Source of the DNA: Dehalococcoidia bacterium
GTDB taxonomy: Bacteria > Chloroflexota > Dehalococcoidia > Lucifugimonadales > JAGWBF01
Direction of reading: 5' to 3'
Assembly: GCA_965226805.1 (NCBI GenBank)
Contig: CBDDDW010000028.1
Coordinates: 398,109 to 462,108, forward strand
DNA length: 64,000 nucleotides
The number at the start of each line of letters is the position of its first letter. The stretch's first letter is position 1. A model generated the notes under the pieces. That model was not told where the DNA came from and did not search any database. It worked only from the letters and a program-made list of their open reading frames with translations. A program made the position numbers and the translations under genes. Of the stretch, positions 22,513 through 38,456 are shown piece after piece.

Positions 22513-23104
22513 CCCCCAGATACTGACCCGGTAGATATGTCTACCGCGTCCTTGAGATAGGGAGGACACGGCCCCCCGCTAGACGACCCGAAGACCGTCT
22601 AGTGGGATCGCGGCATACCGCCGCGCCGAGTGCTATGACCCCTCCAACTTGCGAGACGACCTACTCCGTTGCACTGACCAGAGGCCCCTCGAATACCCCT
22701 CATTATTATTAACATAGTAAAAATTTGAGTCAAAACAACTCAACATAACATCTCTGCCAAGAACGTATGAGATGCTTTTGATGAGGCAGCCATCCTGCGC
22801 AAGTTGCCCCCTAATTGTCCCCTATTCCACACCTCCCGGCGATTCCATCGTACGCCAGGTTGAAAGCTGTTTAAACAAAAATTGAACAAAAGTTAAGATA
22901 AAGTCATCGAATTTTGCCTTGACAACCTACTCCCTTTTGCCCATTCTTGGGGGGTAATGGTGCGTTCACGTTCTGTTCACATAAAGAGGCGGCGAGCAGA
23001 GGGCGACGGAGAGAAGGGCGTGAGCACTGCCGGCCTAAGAGCGGTTTAATCTTTTTCAATACCGTTCCTCGATTTCGAATGGTAACTGTATCAGGAGGTG
23101 ATGC

Positions 23105-24045: not shown

Positions 24046-25368
24046 CTACATCGTTTCGACCAGTAGGGATCCCGCTACGTCTTCGATGAGCCTGGCTTTG
24101 GTTATCCAGTTGAGCAGCGGACGCTCGTCCCAGGTGTGTACCTTGAGATAGTTGTCCGTCAAGCCCAGGTGTATCGGACTTTGGTTCCGAATCTCTACCC
24201 TCTCCCATAGCACTTGCCTTACGCTTCCGATGGCCCTCCTGCGAAATTCGGAGGATTGCTTCCGCTCCAAGCGCAACAAACGCTCCATCCGTTTCCTTTT
24301 AACCGCTCCATCGACAGAGGGTCTCATGTACGCCGCGCTGGTGCCCGGTCTCACCGAGTAAGGGAAGACGTGCATCGAGGCGAACTCCATCTTGCTGACC
24401 ATCCCCAAAGTCTCCTGGAATTGCTGGTCCTCCTCTCCAGGGAAGCCCACTATGACATCGGCGGTGATGGACGCGCCGGGTACTCTGGCGCGAATCTTGT
24501 CAACAACTTCCTCGTATCCTGCTGCGGTGTAGCGGCGGCGCATCCTGTTGAGGATTTCGTCGCTGCCACTCTGCAATGGCATGTGAAAGTGGGGGCATAA
24601 TCGGGGGTCTTCCCATAGCTCAAGCAGCTCGGCCGTAATCTCCTGGGGCTGCAGGGAAGACACCCGCAACCTGGGCAACCCTGACTCCCGGAGCAGGAGC
24701 TCCAAAAGGTCTCGCAGATTCACATCCGCAAGCTCGTATCCGTAGGTACCCAGTTGGGTGCCCGTTAGCACCACCTCTTTGTAACCCTCTTCTGCGAGCT
24801 GCTGCAGCTGAGCAACCAGATGTTCTGGAGGTATGCTCCGCTCCCGTCCCCGCATCTTGGGCACGATGCAATAGGCGCAAACCTGATTGCACCCCTCCTG
24901 AATTTTTACCATTGCCCTGGTGCGTGTCGGAATATTGGCTATTGAGAATAGCGGCGGATCTTCCCCGGTGGCGCATGGGGTCACCGGGTCACCCCGCGCC
25001 GACGTCACCATCTCTACCAGCCGGTGCTTATCCGTATTGCCCGCTACGAGGGTGACGCCTTGAACGCGGGCAAGCTCCTTGGAGGCTCGCTGGGCATAGC
25101 AGCCTGTAGCGACCACCATCGATCCCGGATGTTTTCGGTGAGCGGAGCGTAGCGCCTGGCGGGCCTTGCTGTCCGCGACGTGCGTTACTGTGCAGGTGTT
25201 CACGATGTGAATGTCGGCCGGTTCTGCGGGGTCCACTACCCTGTACCCGGCTTGGGCGAACTGGCGGGCCAAAGTCTCACTGTCGGCCTGGTTCAGCTTG
25301 CAGCCATGCGTCCGTATGGCGACCGTGCCCAACTCATCTGGGGTGGCGGCCATATTTCCGGGCGTCAT
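24046..25368 (-). CDS. mtaB: radical SAM methylthiotransferase, MiaB/MtaB family (MtaB-like)
   Basis: N-terminal UPF0004 region (IRTHGCKLNQADSE), the radical SAM motif CNQVCAYC and a C-terminal TRAM-like region. Confidence 0.8.
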   Translation of the reverse strand: MTPGNMAATPDELGTVAIRTHGCKLNQADSETLARQFAQAGYRVVDPAEPADIHIVNTCTVTHVADSKARQALRSAHRKHPGSMVVATGCYAQRASKELARVQGVTLVAGNTDKHRLVEMVTSARGDPVTPCATGEDPPLFSIANIPTRTRAMVKIQEGCNQVCAYCIVPKMRGRERSIPPEHLVAQLQQLAEEGYKEVVLTGTQLGTYGYELADVNLRDLLELLLRESGLPRLRVSSLQPQEITAELLELWEDPRLCPHFHMPLQSGSDEILNRMRRRYTAAGYEEVVDKIRARVPGASITADVIVGFPGEEDQQFQETLGMVSKMEFASMHVFPYSVRPGTSAAYMRPSVDGAVKRKRMERLLRLERKQSSEFRRRAIGSVRQVLWERVEIRNQSPIHLGLTDNYLKVHTWDERPLLNWITKARLIEDVAGSLLVETM

Positions 25369-28330: not shown

Positions 28331-28711
28331 ATGGGGTCCAGCGGACTCAAGTTGACCCACATGAACCACGCTCTTACGGTCGTGAAGGACCTGAAACGGG
28401 GAATGGAATTCTACTGCGATTTTCTTGGCTTAAAGCGGATTCAGAGCCAGGTGGACAATCCCAACATCGTGTGGCTTCAGCTACCCAGTGGGGTGATGCT
28501 GCACCTGCTGGAGACCCAGGATGCTCCAGTCCGCCCACCGAATATCCACAACGCTTTCGAGGTAGAGGACTTCGACGCTGCCAGGAAGGCGGTAGAGGAT
28601 AAGGGTCTGGAGGTCGAAGGGCCCGGTGTACGGCATGACGGACAAAGGTACCTGTATATCCGGGACCCCGATGGCAACCGCGTGGAACTTTGCACAGCTT
28701 CGGGATTCTAG
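28331..28711 (+). CDS. VOC (glyoxalase/bleomycin resistance/dioxygenase) family protein
   Basis: ..LKLTHMNHALTVVKDLKRGMEFYCDFLGL.. and ..YIRDPDGNRVEL. The track start at 28304 lies inside a TATAAT-like box, so I prefer the in-frame ATG at 28331. Confidence 0.75.
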   Translation: MGSSGLKLTHMNHALTVVKDLKRGMEFYCDFLGLKRIQSQVDNPNIVWLQLPSGVMLHLLETQDAPVRPPNIHNAFEVEDFDAARKAVEDKGLEVEGPGVRHDGQRYLYIRDPDGNRVELCTASGF

Positions 28712-30201
28712 CCGGCATTAGCGTCTTCCGCTTCCTTCCGTTCCCTTTGGTCGGGGCGCATCAGAAGAGCCGCTGGGATGGCGATCAGGGCAACGACCGC
28801 CGCGACTCGGAAGAATTTGTTGAATAAGGATAGACCGGCGTCCATAAGGGCGGTGTTGTAGGTATCTAGCCTGGTCTGGAACGCATCGGCCGCCTCTCCT
28901 TCCTGGGGCAGGGGCAGCTCCAGCCCTGCCGTAAGGATCTGGAACTGCTCAACACCCCATGCTGCCAGGGCTGCCAGGCCCAGGGCCATCCCGATCATCC
29001 GGGAAACAATGACCAGAGAGGCGACCGTCGCCCGATAGTCCTCGCCTGCCGAACTCAGAGCTCTGGTCATGATCGGCGCATTGTTAAGGCCGAATCCGAA
29101 CCCCGCGATGACCAGGTGCAGGGTCAACCACGGCTCCGCGATGTCCAGCTCCCAGGTGCTAACGAGGAACAGGCCGAGGGCGCTGAGCCCCAAGCCGGCG
29201 ATTGTGACCGGACGGACGCCGATACCCGCCAGCAATAGTCCGCCTATCACCGCGCCCACTGGGATGGCCGCGGTCATTCTCAAGAGCCACCAGGCCCCGG
29301 TCAGAGGGTCTTTGCCCATTACGGTGTCTGCCATTAGTGGTATTGTGACTATAGCGATGATCAGCGATACTCCCTCCAGAAGTTGTGTCAGGTTGGCGGT
29401 CAGGAATGCCCTGGAGTGGAGGAGAGAGCGGGCCAGCAGAGGTTGTAAGGTCCGCCCTTCGAGGAAGATGAAGGATGCCGCGATTCCTAGCGCGGGCACC
29501 CCTAAGATGAACGGCGCCGGTGAAGACACGCTGAACAGTCCCTCACGAGAGAGGGCCAGCGAAAGCAGGATGAGCGTAATTGTCAGGAGGGCGCCGCCCC
29601 TGTAGTCCACGCGTACTCCTGTCTGGCGCTGGTTGGGCAGCCACATGAGAGCGATAAACAAAACGGCGCTTTGGGGCACGTTGAGCCAGAAGATCCAGCG
29701 CCAGCTGAGCCACTCGATTATCGCTCCGCCGTAGGCCGGCCCCAGCATGGAACCCGCTTCAGCAGCCGCGACCACAAGGCCGATGCCTATGCCACGCTGA
29801 TGCCTGGGAAGAACCGCACTGGCGATGGCCATGCTGATGGGAACCGTAGCGCCGCCGCCTATGGCTTGGACCACCCGCGCTCCGACAATCCACCCGAGGT
29901 TGGTCGAGACTGCCACAAGGGAGGTGCCGATGACGAATACTATCAAGGAGGCTTGATAGACTCGAGCGTACCCGTGCACGTCCGCCAGACGACCCATAAG
30001 AGGCATGACAGAGGTGTAGCCCAGGAGGTAGGCAGTGACTATCCATGCGGCCCGGTCTATCTCGGCCACCGGTATCTTGATATCGAACATGATGTTGGGT
30101 AGGGCAGTCACCACGACCGTCTGATCCAGAGCGGTGGTAAAAACCCCGAAGCACACTAAGCCGAGTATCACGGGGGTGGGCAGGCGTCTTGATGATCTCA
30201 T
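28708..30201 (-). CDS. MFS transporter, DHA2/EmrB-like (about 14 TM segments)
   Basis: ..ALDQTVVVTALPNIM..AWIVTAYLLGYTSVMPLMGRLADVHG.., a typical MFS drug:H+ antiporter signature. Confidence 0.85.
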   Translation of the reverse strand: MRSSRRLPTPVILGLVCFGVFTTALDQTVVVTALPNIMFDIKIPVAEIDRAAWIVTAYLLGYTSVMPLMGRLADVHGYARVYQASLIVFVIGTSLVAVSTNLGWIVGARVVQAIGGGATVPISMAIASAVLPRHQRGIGIGLVVAAAEAGSMLGPAYGGAIIEWLSWRWIFWLNVPQSAVLFIALMWLPNQRQTGVRVDYRGGALLTITLILLSLALSREGLFSVSSPAPFILGVPALGIAASFIFLEGRTLQPLLARSLLHSRAFLTANLTQLLEGVSLIIAIVTIPLMADTVMGKDPLTGAWWLLRMTAAIPVGAVIGGLLLAGIGVRPVTIAGLGLSALGLFLVSTWELDIAEPWLTLHLVIAGFGFGLNNAPIMTRALSSAGEDYRATVASLVIVSRMIGMALGLAALAAWGVEQFQILTAGLELPLPQEGEAADAFQTRLDTYNTALMDAGLSLFNKFFRVAAVVALIAIPAALLMRPDQRERKEAEDANAG

Positions 30202-30293
30202 TCTTCTCTCACTGACTGGGGTCGAGTTGCCGCCAACTGAGAGGGCTGGAGGTTCTCAATGGCGACCCAACCGACAGGAGGAATGGTGAGGGC

Positions 30294-31055
30294 CTAGGGC
30301 AGAGAGATGTCTACGGGCTGATCGAAGTTGTATAGAGTAAGAAGTCTTACCACCTGTGGGTCGTCCCTGGAGAGTACCTGGCCCTCTATTCGTGCCTTTC
30401 GCAGCAGGTTGTGTTCCAGGCCAATCCACAGATCGAGTCCGACCTCGAACCCGGGTTCGGCCGTGGGTATGAGTGAGGACAGGCCTTCCGAGGGTACATT
30501 ACCTCGGACCCGCCACGACTCCACACCATCCACTTCCTCCGTGCCGGTGATCCTGGGGTCCTCCAGTGAATCGATGATATCGCCCAATGTCCGCCCCAGG
30601 TCGGCGAAGTTGAACGGAAGAACGTCCGGCTGCACTGGATTCCACTTTTTCCGGTTGATGAAGTCGGTCATGAAAGTCTGGTCCCCCGAGGACACGACCC
30701 TGATCTCTATGAAACCCTTCAAATCCTCGGAAAACGCCACCGATCCTTCGACTCTGATACTGTACCTGTCCGGCATGTCCACCTGACCTTCCACCAAGTT
30801 GAACACCACCAGGGGAGTGGGAATAAGAACCGTGGAGGAGTCGCCTTCATGGGTCAGGCTGAACTCTGCCGTGTCGAGGGCTATCATTCTCTTGGCCGAT
30901 CTCTCGATGATTTCCCGAGGCGATGCGGTGGGAGTCGGCTGTGGGGTGGAGGTCGCCGCCGGCGCCGAGGCGCATCCCAAAATCCATACGTGCGCCAGCA
31001 CAAGCAGGCCGGAAATTAACGAGAGCCTCCAAGGCGTGACTGGACCAGTCTTCAC
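30294..31055 (-). CDS. LppX/LprAFG-like lipoprotein (LprG-like)
   Basis: Lipobox (WILGCAS), a Thr/Pro linker, and a length and pattern resembling the LppX_LprAFG fold. It lies directly upstream of the MFS gene, as in the actinobacterial lprG-p55 pair. Confidence 0.55.
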   Translation of the reverse strand: MKTGPVTPWRLSLISGLLVLAHVWILGCASAPAATSTPQPTPTASPREIIERSAKRMIALDTAEFSLTHEGDSSTVLIPTPLVVFNLVEGQVDMPDRYSIRVEGSVAFSEDLKGFIEIRVVSSGDQTFMTDFINRKKWNPVQPDVLPFNFADLGRTLGDIIDSLEDPRITGTEEVDGVESWRVRGNVPSEGLSSLIPTAEPGFEVGLDLWIGLEHNLLRKARIEGQVLSRDDPQVVRLLTLYNFDQPVDISLP

Positions 31056-31650
31056 GAGGTGCGCCCCCTCGGCGGTCCTATCTGTTCAGCTTGTCTTAGC
31101 TCACGAATAGGGGGGTGGAACTGGTCTCGGCAGCCGGGTTCACCACTCCCGGGAGGGGCGTTCAGCCGTAGCGCGTAGTTCAGCGGATGATCGACCCTTG
31201 TTCCTATTTCCATGACCAGGAAGCGAAGCGGCTCGTCGCGATCTCCCTAGGTACGGTGCTTTCCTTTATGTCCATGACGTACACCTTAAACGCTTCGGGG
31301 GTCGAGCCATTCTGGCTGAGTCCGGTCCCGCCGAGTATCCCGCTAAAGGTTATTTGGGAGCTGTCCGGAGACCACACTGAGTGGGAGTAGGCATACTGAT
31401 CGAAGAAGAAGAGGAGGGTCAAGAATTCGGGCGAGGGCAAGAAATCTACCAGCTCTATTGGTTCCCCTCCGGCCCTGTCCACGTATTTCCAGGTCAATGG
31501 CCGGCGGGTTTCATCGTAGGCAACGTAAACGATCTTGTCTCCGTCTGGAGACCAGAAAAACGAGACGAATTTCTCGTTCAGCAACGTCCTTTGAGCAGTA
31601 CCATCGCTACTAACCACAGTAAGCTTATCAAAGATGGGAGGGCCCGACCT

Positions 31651-31666
31651 GGGGGGGGGGGGGGGG
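31651..31666. repeat. G16 (C16 on the coding strand) homopolymeric tract
   Basis: Counted directly: t(31650), G x16, c(31667). Confidence 0.95.
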
Positions 31667-32511
31667 CTTCGGCCACTGCTACCTCGTCCCTCGTAGGAGA
31701 CCAATGGAACGCCGACGTTTCCTCGATCTTCAGGATGGGCTTGGCCCCTGGCACCCGAGGCTCGGTTTCAGCCAGGTAAATGGCGTTCCCATCTCCACTG
31801 GCGGCGGCATATACCATCTGGCTCCCGTCTCGGTACAAAGCGGGTGCGTTGAATGACAGGTTTGTTTGTGTGAGTTGTCGTGGCAGCTCGAGGCCTTCAC
31901 CAGACCTTGCGGCGAACAGCAGATCGCCTCTTCGGTGGAGGAGGATTCCGTTGCCGTCGCGAGCCCAGCTGAAGTAAAGTGGGCCCTGGCCGGCCACGAA
32001 CACCGGCGCCCATTCTGATTTGCTAGAGCTGAGGTACAGAGCTAGCTCCCTCGGCGTTGACGCAATGAAGGTCAGATGTTCGCTGTCCGGAGACCAGTAC
32101 AGGTAGTGCGGAGCGCCTTGGGCTATAGGGAAGGTATTCGGGTCGTTTTCGTAGACCCTCGTGGTCCTTCCAGTGGAAACGTCTATTACTTCCACTGAGA
32201 ATAGCGTCTCGGCCTCGCCTAGCAGGGTGCGCGACACAGCCAGTTTAGTGCCGTCTGGTGACCATGTGGGCCAGGAGTAAAACACGCGGTTATCGAGCCC
32301 CTGAGCCAGGATGATCCCTCCAGATGATCCAACCCGAAGGTCGGTGGTCGTGAGCCTCTGTGAATCGGTGCCGTCAGGATTTATGGTGAATACGTTACCG
32401 TCGGAGCCTGTGTAGGCGATTCGGTTCACTGCCATACCCCTTTCCTTCTGGGGAGACTTGGACGTGGCTGTAGGTGTGGACTGGTCGGCGACCGGCTGGG
32501 GAAACTCTGGC

Positions 32512-32650
32512 GTAGCAGTAGGAGTAGGCTGGGCAGCGTCCGACTGGGCAGACTTTGGTGTAGCAGTAGGAGTAGGCTGGGTGGTGTCCGACTGGGCCGA
32601 CTTGGACGTAGCCGTAGGGGCGGACTGGGTGGCGTCTGACGGGGTGCCGC
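32512..32650 (-). repeat. 48-bp tandem repeat (about 2.8 copies) encoding a TPTATPKSAQSD(A/T)(A/T)QP linker
   Basis: Units at 32512-32559 and 32560-32607 differ at a few positions. Degenerate copies lie on both sides. Confidence 0.8.
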
Positions 32651-32812
32651 CGGCCCGATCGGCTGCTCGTTGCCTCTCTCCGCAGGCCGGCATAGCCACC
32701 AGGACACCTGCGATCACCAAGAGCAGCGTCGAGAACCGAATAAACGATCTCTTGAGACTGATCAAGTCCGACCTCGGTGCTTAGATAGTGTGCCGGCCCA
32801 GTCTGTCCGATC

Positions 32813-33604
32813 TCAGACTAGCCGGAGCGCCAGGTTAAGACCGGCCGCCGTGAGGGCCAACCCAGAGATGCGAGAAACCCACACGGTATGTGCCAGCCTT
32901 TCCAGCAGTATCACAACCGCGAGACCCGCCATCCACATCAAATTCATGATGCCAAGAGGGAGCATAACCAGCATCAATGCCCAACAGCATCCGAGACAGT
33001 ACCATCCCTGGTTGATTCCCATGTGGAAAGCCCCCGCGTACCCTTCTTGCCAGTCATGCATCACGAAGCTCATGGGATTGCGGCAGTGCGAAAGGCACCG
33101 ATCTTTCCACGGAGTGAGCTGATATAGGCCTGCCCCTATGACAACTAGCGCGCCGACGAGCGCTGCCCCGGTTTGGACGGACGGAAACTGGCCCGCGAGG
33201 GTTTCTAGTCCTAATTTGCTTAAATAACCGGGCACTCCGGATAGGCTCCATAGCACCACGTATCCCGCTACAAAAACCCAAATGGGAACATACGTATGGC
33301 TCGTGGCGCGGCGGCGGCGAGATACGTTCGAAAATGTAATCGCCATGGGGAGGAAGGCGGGTAACATCATGGCCGCCATCATTATGGCCCACATGGGCAA
33401 GAACAGCGACAGATCGCGCCAAAGGGGACGATCCTGAGTGGCCATGGCCAGCGGGTCAATGCCGGTCATGGTCATGGTCCTGGACCTGAAATAAATATCT
33501 GTCCAGGCGAATGCCGCCAGGCCCAGTAGGCACAGGACCAAGATGAGAGTCCCCCATCTCTGGATTGCGAATCCTGGCGGCGCTGGGGTGTCGATCCGGT
33601 ACAT
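32813..33604 (-). CDS. DUF2182-like putative metal-binding integral membrane protein
   Basis: Polytopic and Met-rich (LFLPMWAIMMAAMMLPAFLPM). The family assignment is from memory of that motif. Confidence 0.5.
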   Translation of the reverse strand: MYRIDTPAPPGFAIQRWGTLILVLCLLGLAAFAWTDIYFRSRTMTMTGIDPLAMATQDRPLWRDLSLFLPMWAIMMAAMMLPAFLPMAITFSNVSRRRRATSHTYVPIWVFVAGYVVLWSLSGVPGYLSKLGLETLAGQFPSVQTGAALVGALVVIGAGLYQLTPWKDRCLSHCRNPMSFVMHDWQEGYAGAFHMGINQGWYCLGCCWALMLVMLPLGIMNLMWMAGLAVVILLERLAHTVWVSRISGLALTAAGLNLALRLV

Positions 33605-35309: not shown

Positions 35310-36329
35310 TCAGCGGTTTTGGACAGTTCTGGGTCCGAGAGATTGGGGTGAAGAAGCTCCTGGTTTGAGGGTTTCTCTGACCTCCTGATTGTACCGCCTC
35401 CGCCGGTCAAAAGTCTCTCGCTGTACCTCCTTCCTCTGGGCTAGAATTGTCTCCAGACGGCCTTCCAGCACGTCAGCCGGAGTTACAACCCTGAGCGCCT
35501 GATGATATCTTCGGTAGTTGTAGAACTCGACGAAGTCCCGGATGGCCGCCTCCAGGTCTTCCACCACCTCGTATGGCACCTGGTTAATGTCGTCTTTCAG
35601 GGTTCGGTGATATCTCTCCAGCGTCCCGTTGGTCTGAGGGTGATAGGGTGCTGCCAGGACGTGGCGAATGCCCACCACCCGCATGTACTCGCGGAAGGCC
35701 CGCGATACATAACCTGAGCCATTATCTGAGAGGAGCTTGGTCCGATCCTCCAGAGGTACATCAGTCATACCAGTAGAGTCAACAGCTTCCTGGACCACCT
35801 CTATGAGGGAGTTGGCCGTCATGTCCCGTTGCACCTTCCAGGCCAAGATGAACCGGGAGTAGTCGTCCATCACCGTCACGAGGTAGTAGTAGCCCCATCC
35901 CACTACACGGAAGTAGGAGGCATCGGTGGCCCACAGCTGGTGGGGCCCTGTGGTCTTGTGCTGGTACTCTTTGCTCGCTGCCAACTGGTATTCGATCCGT
36001 TTCACCAGACCCTCCCGTCTCAGAATACGATAGACTGTGGAGGCGGAGACCGATAGGCCTCTGTGGTCGGTGAGCGAAGCCGCCAACTGCCGGCTTCGCC
36101 AGGTCGGCATCCCACGGGCTGCCGCCAGCACTACTGCCTCCTCTTCTGGACGCAGGCGATTCCAGGGCCTCTCAGTTCCTTCCGTACCCTCCCAACTACC
36201 CTGCCGGTGCCTCCACCTCCACCAATAATACGTGCTCCTGGAAATGCCAAGCTCCCTGAGTCGCCTGTTCTTCCCTCTACCATGTCGCTCCACCTCAGCC
36301 ACGACCTTCGATTGTTCCACTACGCTCAT
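35310..36329 (-). CDS. IS3-family transposase OrfB (rve/DDE integrase core)
   Basis: ..LWATDASYFRV..YYYLVTVMDDYSRFILAW..LLSDNGSGYVS..YHPQTNGTLERYHRTLK.. It is in the -1 frame relative to OrfA, and that frame is open upstream through the A7 run. Confidence 0.9.
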   Translation of the reverse strand: MSVVEQSKVVAEVERHGRGKNRRLRELGISRSTYYWWRWRHRQGSWEGTEGTERPWNRLRPEEEAVVLAAARGMPTWRSRQLAASLTDHRGLSVSASTVYRILRREGLVKRIEYQLAASKEYQHKTTGPHQLWATDASYFRVVGWGYYYLVTVMDDYSRFILAWKVQRDMTANSLIEVVQEAVDSTGMTDVPLEDRTKLLSDNGSGYVSRAFREYMRVVGIRHVLAAPYHPQTNGTLERYHRTLKDDINQVPYEVVEDLEAAIRDFVEFYNYRRYHQALRVVTPADVLEGRLETILAQRKEVQRETFDRRRRYNQEVRETLKPGASSPQSLGPRTVQNR

Positions 36330-36730
36330 GCGACGGTGCCGTTGTCGTGTAGGGGCGGCAGAGCTGTTTTTTTGAAGCGGTGCAACTCCAGGGACAACTC
36401 ACCCACCAGCTGCTTCAGTTCTCTGTTCTCCCGCTTGAGCTGCTCTATCTCTTGCCGGGTCGCATCACGCACACTGTCCCGAGTCAACCTCTCCTTCCCA
36501 GCTTCCATGAACCCCTTCGTCCAGGCGTAGTAGGAGTGGGGTTTGATTCCTTCCCGTCGGCACAGGTCATTAACGGTAGTCTCCCGTCTGAACCCCTCCA
36601 AGACGATGCGGATCTTCTCTTCAGGGGTATACTTACGGCGGGTCGCTGCACGGACCTGACGCACGAAGCTTCGTGTCTCCTGGCTTCGCTCCTCAGCTTG
36701 GCTGGCCTGATCCTCTACCTGGGTCATCAA
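36326..36730 (-). CDS. IS3-family transposase OrfA (HTH plus leucine zipper)
   Basis: ..RRKYTPEEKIRIVLEGFRRETTVNDLCRREGIKPHSYYAWTK..IEQLKRENRELKQLVGELSLEL. The A7 slippery run is at 36367-36373. AAGGAG precedes the ATG. Confidence 0.85.
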   Translation of the reverse strand: MMTQVEDQASQAEERSQETRSFVRQVRAATRRKYTPEEKIRIVLEGFRRETTVNDLCRREGIKPHSYYAWTKGFMEAGKERLTRDSVRDATRQEIEQLKRENRELKQLVGELSLELHRFKKTALPPLHDNGTVA

Positions 36731-36742
36731 TGACTCCTTTCA

Positions 36743-38456
36743 CTAAGCCCGAATCCACCGAAGGACGGCCTTGGGGACAGTCCTTGAAGAAGCCATCGGG
36801 TGCTCCTCTGAATCTGGGATAATGGTTTTGGAACAGAAACCAGCCCGGAAACAAGGAGCACCCAATAGATGCTGCCACAGAACAAACCCGACCGTATCCG
36901 CATCCTCTTTGACGACCATCGCCTGGTGGCCAATGCCGGCCTGCTCCTGCCGGCCACCCTAGCCCGGCACCTGGGCCTGCGGGAACTCGTCGACCATCAC
37001 CTTGACCTCGGCGGAGCGCCGGGACGGGCGAACACTGGGGACAAGATGCTGACGCTGGTCGCTTCCGCGCTGGCAGGCGGCGACTGCATCGACGACGCCG
37101 ATGCGCTGCGCGCTGGTGGGACGGTCGGTGTTCTAGGCTGCGTGGTCAAGGCGCCATCCACCCTGGGGACCTTCCTGCGCAGCTTCCGGTGGGGGCATGT
37201 CCGTCAACTCGACCGCGTGAGCCGCCAGTTGTTGGCCCGGGCCTGGGCCGCTGGGGCCGGACCCGGCGACTCGCCCCTGACCATCGACCTGGACTCGACC
37301 ATCTGCGAGACCTATGGACTGGACAAGGAGGGAGCGCGCCACCACGGCTATACCGGCGCCCGCGGCTATCACCCGCTGCTGGCCATTGCCGCCGGCACCG
37401 GCGAGGTGCTGATGTCCCGGCTGCGCGAGGGCCGGGCCAACACCGCCCGTGGCGCCGCCCACTTCCTGCGTGAGACGGTGGGGCGGGTGCGCTACGGCGG
37501 GGCTAGGGGACAACTCACGGTGCGGGCCGACAGCGGCTTCTACGCCCACACTGTCGTTGCCGCCTGCCGGGAAATGGATGTCCGCTTCTCTATCACCATC
37601 CGCCAGCGCGCCAGCCTGCGGGACCTGATCGAGGCGATACCAGAGGAGGACTGGACTCCCATTCCCTACTGGATGGACGGCGCCGCCGATGTCGCCGAGA
37701 CGACTTACACCCCGTTCCAGACCAAGCCGGACGCCGCGCCGGTGCGGCTCATTGTCCGGCGGGTGAAGCCGACGCCCGGTTCCCAGCTCGCCCTCTTCGC
37801 CAGATACAGCTATCACGCCTTCATCACCGACCGCGATGGGGAGACGCTGGAACTGGAGGCCGATCATCGCCGCCACGCCGAGGTCGAGAACGCCATACGC
37901 GACCTCAAGTACGGCGTCGGGCTGAACCACATGCCGTCGGGGCGCTTCGCCGCCAACGGCGCCTGGCTGGCGGTCCAGGTGATGGCGCATAACCTGGCCC
38001 GCTGGACAGCCCGCATCGGCCTGGGTCAGCAGATCGTGACCACCAAGACCCTCAGGCGGCGGGTCTTCGCTCTGGTGGGACGGATCACCCGCTCGGCGCG
38101 CCGCCTCACTTTGCATCTCCCCCGGCGCTGGCCTTGGGAAACCCAGTTCAGTCGCGCCTTGGCCCGGCTGCAAGCCATTCCATTCCCGGCCTGACGGCCA
38201 GCCTGCAACTGACCCAACGTCCCCGCAATCTCGCGCCACCCCGGTCGCGAGAGTCCCCTGCTGCGTATCCTCTCGCCATCCCGCGCATCGCAACTCCCGC
38301 ATAGGGCCTTAGGGGCCCTGTGCGGCGCCTGAAGACCCTCCGCCGGCCTCCCATCTACCCCAAGACCCCAGGCCATCTCCCCTGTAGCTCCCTCACCCAC
38401 CCCCTTCCGCTGTCCTCACGCCGTCCATCCGTGTCCTTCGGTGGATTCGGGCTTAG
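36743..38456 (+). mobile_element. IS1380-family insertion sequence nested inside the IS3 element, 12 nt upstream of IS3 orfA
   Basis: Perfect 24-bp terminal IRs: CTAAGCCCGAATCCACCGAAGGAC (36743-36766) and its reverse complement (38433-38456). I found no clear target duplication. Confidence 0.85.
36869..38194 (+). CDS. IS1380-family DDE transposase
   Basis: 441 aa with ..LTIDLDSTICETYG..GYHPLLA..VRADSGFY..HAEVENAIRDLKYGVGLNHMPSGRFAANGAWLAVQVMAHNLARW.., typical IS1380 signatures. It is visibly more GC-rich than its flanks. Confidence 0.9.
   Translation: MLPQNKPDRIRILFDDHRLVANAGLLLPATLARHLGLRELVDHHLDLGGAPGRANTGDKMLTLVASALAGGDCIDDADALRAGGTVGVLGCVVKAPSTLGTFLRSFRWGHVRQLDRVSRQLLARAWAAGAGPGDSPLTIDLDSTICETYGLDKEGARHHGYTGARGYHPLLAIAAGTGEVLMSRLREGRANTARGAAHFLRETVGRVRYGGARGQLTVRADSGFYAHTVVAACREMDVRFSITIRQRASLRDLIEAIPEEDWTPIPYWMDGAADVAETTYTPFQTKPDAAPVRLIVRRVKPTPGSQLALFARYSYHAFITDRDGETLELEADHRRHAEVENAIRDLKYGVGLNHMPSGRFAANGAWLAVQVMAHNLARWTARIGLGQQIVTTKTLRRRVFALVGRITRSARRLTLHLPRRWPWETQFSRALARLQAIPFPA

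Follow-up and report, generated by a model that had tools for sequence, protein, structure and literature searches.

A coding poly-C tract of variable recorded length splits a PD40 β-propeller lipoprotein gene in a soil Dehalococcoidia bacterium

A predicted PD40 β-propeller lipoprotein gene in a 64-kb stretch of Dehalococcoidia DNA (the window, as the whole analysed stretch is called here) is split into two open reading frames (ORFs) by a run of 16 C; the tract is real and species-specific, and its recorded length differs between assemblies. At a probability of roughly 0.6, the best explanation is considered to be a genuine slippage-prone coding homopolymer that toggles the frame of this single lipoprotein gene, with the window displaying the out-of-frame state. 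In the proposed mechanism a soil member of the Dehalococcoidia (Chloroflexota) would carry a membrane-anchored PD40 lipoprotein gene with a coding poly-C tract, recorded at 11–16 nt; as a long G/C homopolymer the tract would be subject to slipped-strand mispairing at replication, and probably to slippage of RNA polymerase too, so its length would drift. A tract of 11, 14 or 17 C would give the full propeller of about seven blades, and at other lengths translation would end 10–24 codons past the tract. The length differences are probably at least partly biological, and they would then switch expression on and off within populations; in mechanism the locus would resemble a contingency locus.

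The plus strand carries exactly 16 G at the tract (C16 in the minus-strand mRNA); across the whole 64-kb window, which has a GC content of 58.7%, the longest other run of G or C is 6 and the longest run of A or T is 7. Run counts in the window drop approximately 4- to 5-fold with each extra base, and extrapolation from them gives about 1e-5 expected runs of at least 16; because of this steep fall with length, the 16-mer is not attributed to chance. In the upstream frame the codons across the tract are GCC CCC CCC CCC CCC CCA and the 24th codon after it is a stop; from the tract onward the C16 product consists of Ala-Pro5 and 23 out-of-frame residues, followed by TGA. The full protein is obtained with C11, C14 and C17, and truncation with C12, C15, C16 and C18; when the gene was rebuilt with altered tract lengths, C17 gave 520 aa and C14 gave 519 aa, while C15, C16 and C18 each gave a truncated protein. 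The tract is located at codon 366 of 520, approximately 70% into the gene. These results bear out the sequence-only reading of this DNA, which had described the 16-nt tract at its exact position, the two ORFs overlapping at it, the upstream codons, the stop 24 codons on, and the restoration of a protein of about 520 aa by C17 or C14. The C16-truncated product is also found in public records as protein P0002 from a 465,880-bp contig, which is identical to the window ORF from Met111; these records annotate the gene as two fragments, P0002 and P0126. The features of the locus are collected in Table 1.

Table 1. Features of the PD40 lipoprotein gene in window coordinates, with the sequences and peptides that mark the tract
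Feature	Position	Strand	Remarks
Whole PD40 β-propeller lipoprotein gene	31204..32765	-	one gene, split into two ORFs here
Upstream ORF	31578..32765	-	395 aa
Downstream ORF	31204..31704	-	166 aa; overlaps the 395-aa ORF at the tract
TTG start, putative signal peptide and lipobox-like ...VAMPA-C28	32682..32765	-	as read from sequence
Thr/Pro/Ser/Gln-rich linker, anchor to propeller	32448..32644	-	48-nt tandem repeat, 4.1 copies (TRF)
Propeller, upstream part: approximately blades 1–4 and first strand of blade 5	31667..32435	-	MAVNRIAY... to ...EVAVAEA
Poly-C tract	31651..31666	-	encodes Ala-Pro(n) in a loop; sets the reading frame
Out-of-frame tail GRALPSLISLLWLVAMVLLKGRC and TGA stop	31578..31650	-	read when the tract is C16
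Propeller, downstream part: rest of blade 5, blades 6–7 and closing strands	31204..31650	-	with C11, C14 or C17 only
Flank sequences spanning the tract			GTAGCAGTGGCCGAAG ... AGGTCGGGCCC
Peptides			in-frame junction EAPPPP(P)RSGPPIFDK; out-of-frame tail ALPSLISLLWLVAMVLLK

On sequence comparison the two ORFs are one gene. The fused mature region was searched against 5.8 billion proteins, giving 2,015 matches, of which 120 were listed; nearly all of those listed, more than 100, are single proteins of approximately 400–520 aa with a query coverage of 99–100%, and any name given to them in the sources, which are MAGs of Dehalococcoidia or Chloroflexi, is "PD40 domain-containing protein". The upstream and downstream parts are contiguous in the homologues inspected. 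The earlier proposal of one split gene is therefore upheld by single homologues that cover the fused sequence, and orthologues in the form of two separate genes, an outcome that it had also envisaged, were not what was found. The closest match listed, P0001 (81% identity, 519 aa), belongs to a sister species whose locus, L001, has in common with the window the gene order hexapeptide transferase, pterin-4a dehydratase, PpoB2, PD40 and MFS; at the tract site L001 reads GCCGA-TACCTCTGCC-AGG, compared to GCCGA-AG-C16-AGG in the window. Because this syntenic orthologue has no tract, which is present in every same-species assembly, the tract is considered an expansion specific to the window's species. 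For the propeller, dN/dS against the P0001 orthologue (Nei-Gojobori) is 0.138 upstream of the tract and 0.156 downstream; the similarly low values on both sides indicate that selection has kept both halves as coding sequence. A separate promoter or terminator for the downstream ORF was looked for and not found, and the downstream ORF as a gene of its own is rejected on this ground and because the homologues are single-chain.

Two genuinely separate genes, or a tract produced by poly-G chemistry or by the joining of an assembly, are both exceedingly improbable explanations. Poly-G is a known artefact of two-colour sequencing chemistry, which is the point in favor of the latter; however, the same flanks surround the tract in at least six independent assemblies with differing pipelines, and the orthologous gene resumes exactly at those flanks. 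The chemistry or join artefact is rejected on this recurrence, and two genes are opposed by the homologues, all single chains, and by a structural model that forms one closed propeller.

The fused protein scores 41.1 bits against the Pfam model PF07676 (PD40), for which the cutoff is 20.9, and repeat motifs of the WSPDG/WSPDS type are seen in both ORFs; WSPDG-like motifs number seven, hence about seven blades. A GAGGT sequence is present 5 nt upstream of the TTG start, and the leaders of homologues are likewise hydrophobic and end in Cys (LMAVTAC in P0001, AVLVAC in P0003). The hydrophobic leader up to Cys28 together with the repeat linker fits a predicted lipoprotein held off the membrane. 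The 48-nt unit of the linker has a 78% match between copies and encodes repeats of the TPTATxKSxQSD type; a similar repeat linker is found in the orthologue P0001. An AlphaFold2 model of the in-frame C14 allele (P0122), built from a 64-sequence alignment, shows an all-β fold with a pLDDT of 90.9 and a pTM of 0.90; it places the tract prolines in a loop between the strands 251–257 and 270–275. Among 70 homologues inspected, the tract site corresponds to a hypervariable loop of 6–12 residues between ...SPTRDEVAVAD and ...YDRLTVVSSDG, and no loop run of at least four Pro or Gly was found in the 120 homologues listed. In-frame changes of the tract (3, 4 or 5 Pro) should thus be tolerated in this variable loop. 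By the model, truncation at the tract would cost approximately 2.75 blades as well as the closing strands; with these and the closure of the ring lost, the truncated product is presumably non-functional.

The protein had been termed TolB-like in the sequence-only reading, which is accurate at the level of the fold and no further. TolB and other PD40 propellers have the same PD40/WD40-like β-propeller fold, and the best structural matches of the model in Foldseek are β-propellers, with TolB structures at the top (E 5e-10); however, the TM score to these is approximately 0.40 with an rmsd of 7–8 Å, and prolyl-oligopeptidase and eIF3b propellers equal or beat TolB by TM. With the TolB equivalog models TIGR02800 and NF002183 the protein scores 39.3 and 41.5 bits, the respective cutoffs being 343 and 405. 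The neighbouring genes encode a PpoB2 copper-chaperone-like protein, a pterin-4a dehydratase, an LppX_LprAFG lipoprotein and an MFS transporter; neither tolQRA nor pal is a neighbour at the locus. Membership of the TolB family is rejected by the equivalog scores, the low TM and the lack of tol-pal neighbours; the window protein also differs from TolB in its lipoprotein anchor, its repeat linker and its set of about seven PD40 motifs.

At 90% identity, the truncated product of the window falls in a cluster of seven proteins that are otherwise identical, and the DNA of these was compared where obtainable. The window has C16 and is out of frame; L003 (ERZ26167216, contig label 5.32x) and L005 (ERZ25766727, 7x) both have C14 and are in frame; L004 (ERZ25068966, 2x) and L006 (ERZ23495128, a METAG-scaffold of 973 bp) both have C12 and are out of frame; a 517,773-bp contig encoding P0125 has an in-frame C11 as deduced from its protein only. 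The recorded lengths are therefore C11, C12, C12, C14, C14 and C16, in contigs that, for the comparison set, are noisy at homopolymers, and three of the six are in frame; this proportion is indistinguishable from the random expectation of 1/3, so selection on the frame is not shown by it. Over the 40 bases upstream of the tract, the five assemblies with DNA sequence do not differ, and over the 40 bases downstream four of them agree; the exception is L006, which carries AGGACC where the others have AGGTCG (two substitutions). SNPs relative to the window are common to L003, L004 and L005, and others are private to L006, one of them changing Ser to Thr beside the tract; these patterns mark the contigs as distinct strains, and a tract found in distinct strains must have arisen before the species diversified and has been kept since then without collapse. 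The sequence-only reading had left the choice between phase switching, slippage and assembly error; the tract as such is real and of variable recorded length, its exact length may reflect either true on/off variation or homopolymer miscalling, and pure artefact is no longer tenable for the tract itself. Wider searches added little: the exact flank pattern with a variable gap had no match in JGI metagenome contigs, and a protein-pattern scan of genome contigs matched only a 31%-identical Dehalococcoidia relative. Look-ups through the LppX, PpoB2 and glyoxalase neighbours yielded the Logan contigs described below and five more same-species contigs that do not extend to the tract.

Two k-mer contigs that Logan assembled from run ERR14231558 match the window at 100.000% identity, without mismatch or gap, over 3,676 and 6,807 bp, and evidently come from the same strain. 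The 3,676-bp contig (window 35327..31652) ends in 16 flank bases and C15, and the 6,807-bp contig (window 31664..24858) starts with C14 and 17 flank bases; this assembly thus matches the window for 10.5 kb and breaks at the tract only. Logan assembly uses k=31, which would span a single clean C16; the break therefore implies either several lengths among the reads or loss of signal, and it would also be expected from homopolymer noise in the reads or from PCR stutter. Most comparison contigs are labelled 2x–7x, and their names suggest the output of a long-read metagenome assembler. Indels of 1–2 nt occur in these contigs at short homopolymers and elsewhere: besides the tract, L004 shows eight of 1 nt over 15 kb, and L005 disagrees with the window at two of the seven runs of at least six bases in the shared region. 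Errors of 1–3 nt are therefore plausible at a 14–16-mer. Within the PD40 gene itself, both L004 and L005 are recorded with one more C at 32582, which falls in the 48-nt repeat linker, and L005 is without CT at 32113; each change by itself would break the frame, whatever the state of the tract, and they are either real lesions or low-coverage errors. At long homopolymers, MAGs from different samples disagree, and the exact bases there are not to be trusted.

These data bear most directly on the possibility of a technical miscall, in which the species would have a stable in-frame tract, such as C14 or C17 (4–5 prolines), and C16 and C12 would be consensus errors; this is considered a serious rival, although less likely than the preferred reading. 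HiFi-type assemblers operate on homopolymer-compressed sequence and put the lengths back afterwards (PMC13087279). The indel noise of the low-coverage same-species contigs at short runs would suit a miscall, as would the failure of the ERR14231558 k-mer assembly solely at the tract with 10.5 kb of perfect flanks; no other window gene in the compared region is visibly broken, and purifying selection is equal on both halves of the gene. On the other hand, the recorded lengths range over 5 nt, from C11 to C16; two large contigs, of 517,773 and 465,880 bp, give C11 and C16, respectively, and a differently named scaffold assembly gives C12. G/C tracts this long mutate at high rates in Neisseria, Campylobacter and Bordetella (PMC5084427, PMC8437040, PMC1891110), and by analogy one of this length would be expected to vary among strains that are 0.2–0.7% apart in SNPs.

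Gene decay is a less probable alternative and is regarded as quite unlikely; here the tract would have expanded recently and without adaptive value, by slippage in the codon run of a proline-rich loop, in a dispensable gene on its way to becoming a pseudogene. Half of the assemblies are out of frame, L004 and L005 have the further frame-breaking indels noted above (+C at 32582 in both and -CT at 32113 in L005), the tract is absent from relatives (the sister species and the 120 homologues listed), and in the sister species the LppX-like neighbour is already gone and the MFS gene is split; all of these are compatible with decay. Nevertheless, the extra indels come from noisy contigs (2x and 7x), apart from the tract the gene is intact in both the window and L003, and in-frame alleles are still common; the downstream dN/dS equals that upstream, although this mainly reflects the time before the tract arose.

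A very unlikely reading is that of programmed recoding, in which the gene would be expressed from an out-of-frame tract either through RNA-polymerase slippage or through -1 ribosomal frameshifting on C CCC CCC. A homopolymer of 16 nt exceeds in length the RNA:DNA hybrid within the polymerase; runs of nine or more A or T make bacterial polymerases slip and give mRNAs of mixed frame (PMC5009743); and at this locus a -1 shift restores the frame, C CCC CCC being formally slippery. The slippage data found, however, cover A/T runs only (PMC6260861, PMC5009743), and the out-of-frame state is not conserved, as three of the six same-species alleles are in frame and no listed homologue has the tract. 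RNA structure 3' of the tract was not significant (z = -1.65; its fold was equalled or bettered by 14 of 200 shuffles), and a stimulatory structure for ribosomal frameshifting is rejected on this score. If the preferred reading of a slippage-prone, frame-toggling homopolymer is correct, incidental polymerase slippage may, by analogy, make the off state leaky.

Homopolymer switching as such is already well known. In Neisseria, Campylobacter jejuni, Helicobacter pylori and Bordetella pertussis, surface-related genes undergo phase variation through slipped-strand mispairing at poly-G or poly-C tracts (PMC5084427, PMC8437040, PMC1891110). The tract described here is similar to the contingency loci of these pathogens in being a long coding G/C homopolymer whose length sets the frame and, as recorded, differs between assemblies, and in that a predicted envelope lipoprotein is affected. 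The pathogen loci, however, belong to host-adapted organisms and have their tracts near the 5' end of the gene, whereas the window comes from an uncultured free-living soil member of the Dehalococcoidia, has just one such tract in 64 kb, known from assemblies only, and has it approximately 70% into the gene; evolved homopolymer switches in general are described as tending toward the 5' end (PMC2831843). Retention by selection, seen as conservation across related lineages or as a position of minimal cost, is typical of contingency loci rather than strictly defining; here the tract is found neither in the 81%-identical orthologue nor in the 120 listed homologues, and it sits at codon 366 of 520. 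It is doubtful that this is a selected contingency locus, by which free-living, uncultured soil Dehalococcoidia would stochastically switch a surface-exposed lipoprotein through poly-C slippage; a benefit of such switching could be, for example, escape from a phage or predator that uses the lipoprotein as its receptor.

A further comparison is with coding homopolymers that act singly. The tract in glpK of Mycobacterium tuberculosis is 7 C. Frameshift variants at homopolymers are documented for this gene and for ESX-1-associated tracts of the same species (PMC10334774, 10.1101/717272), and in Listeria monocytogenes poly-A frameshift variants are described for inlA, with a 7-A tract (PMC2831843). 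As proposed for the window, a reversible indel in a coding homopolymer inactivates or restores one gene in these species, without a repertoire of tracts; their tracts are short and the variation is experimentally verified, whereas the window tract, at 11–16 nt, is known from assemblies alone. Frameshifted genes of the endosymbionts Buchnera and Blochmannia are rescued when transcription slips at long homopolymers (work cited in PMC5009743). There too a long homopolymer interrupts a conserved gene, and at the window's tract polymerase slippage could likewise give some in-frame mRNA; the endosymbiont tracts, however, are poly-A in AT-rich reduced genomes, compared to poly-C in a genome of 59% GC.

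If the length variation is biological, it would represent natural homopolymer on/off switching of an envelope protein in uncultured soil Chloroflexota, detectable directly from metagenomes, and would suggest that loci of the contingency type occur outside pathogens and commensals. To our knowledge, phase variation by simple sequence repeats (SSRs) is known almost entirely from host-associated bacteria, and among the results listed by a literature search there was no report of it in Chloroflexota; a selected contingency locus would extend SSR phase variation to an environmental phylum.

Several further observations concern the neighbourhood of the gene. The PpoB2 gene (32813-33604, minus strand) contains a GGTCAT hexanucleotide repeat at 33464-33483 (3.3 copies), which encodes a Thr-Met repeat; in L005 it has two extra units, an in-frame gain of 12 nt, so that a second repeat of variable length lies 1.8 kb from the poly-G tract. 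The stretch directly downstream of the PD40 gene, 28708-31055 on the minus strand, encodes an LppX_LprAFG lipoprotein (253 aa) and then an MFS transporter (497 aa), a pair that we take to recall the mycobacterial LprG-Rv1410c operon; at L001 of the sister species the lipoprotein gene is missing and gene calling divides the MFS transporter into pieces of 161 and 242 aa. At 25344 the window has C4 and L003 has C7, an in-frame difference that gives a radical-SAM/UPF0004 protein of 441 aa in L003 compared to 440 in the window; in the intergenic run at 22949-22954, the window has G6 and both L003 and L005 have G5.

Two mobile elements were also noted. An element at 35310-36744, which contains HTH_Tnp_1 and rve integrase genes and is IS3-like by its domains, is shared by the window with L004 and L005; the Logan contig L010 (ERR14231558) starts inside it, at window position 35327. 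An insertion sequence of 1,707 bp at 36745-38451 is present in the window strain and absent from L004 and L005, where 36744 joins 38452; it encodes a 441-aa DDE_Tnp_1_4 transposase (E 4e-59) and is bordered by terminal inverted repeats of approximately 14 bp, AAGCCCGAATCCAC and GTGGATTCGGGCTT.
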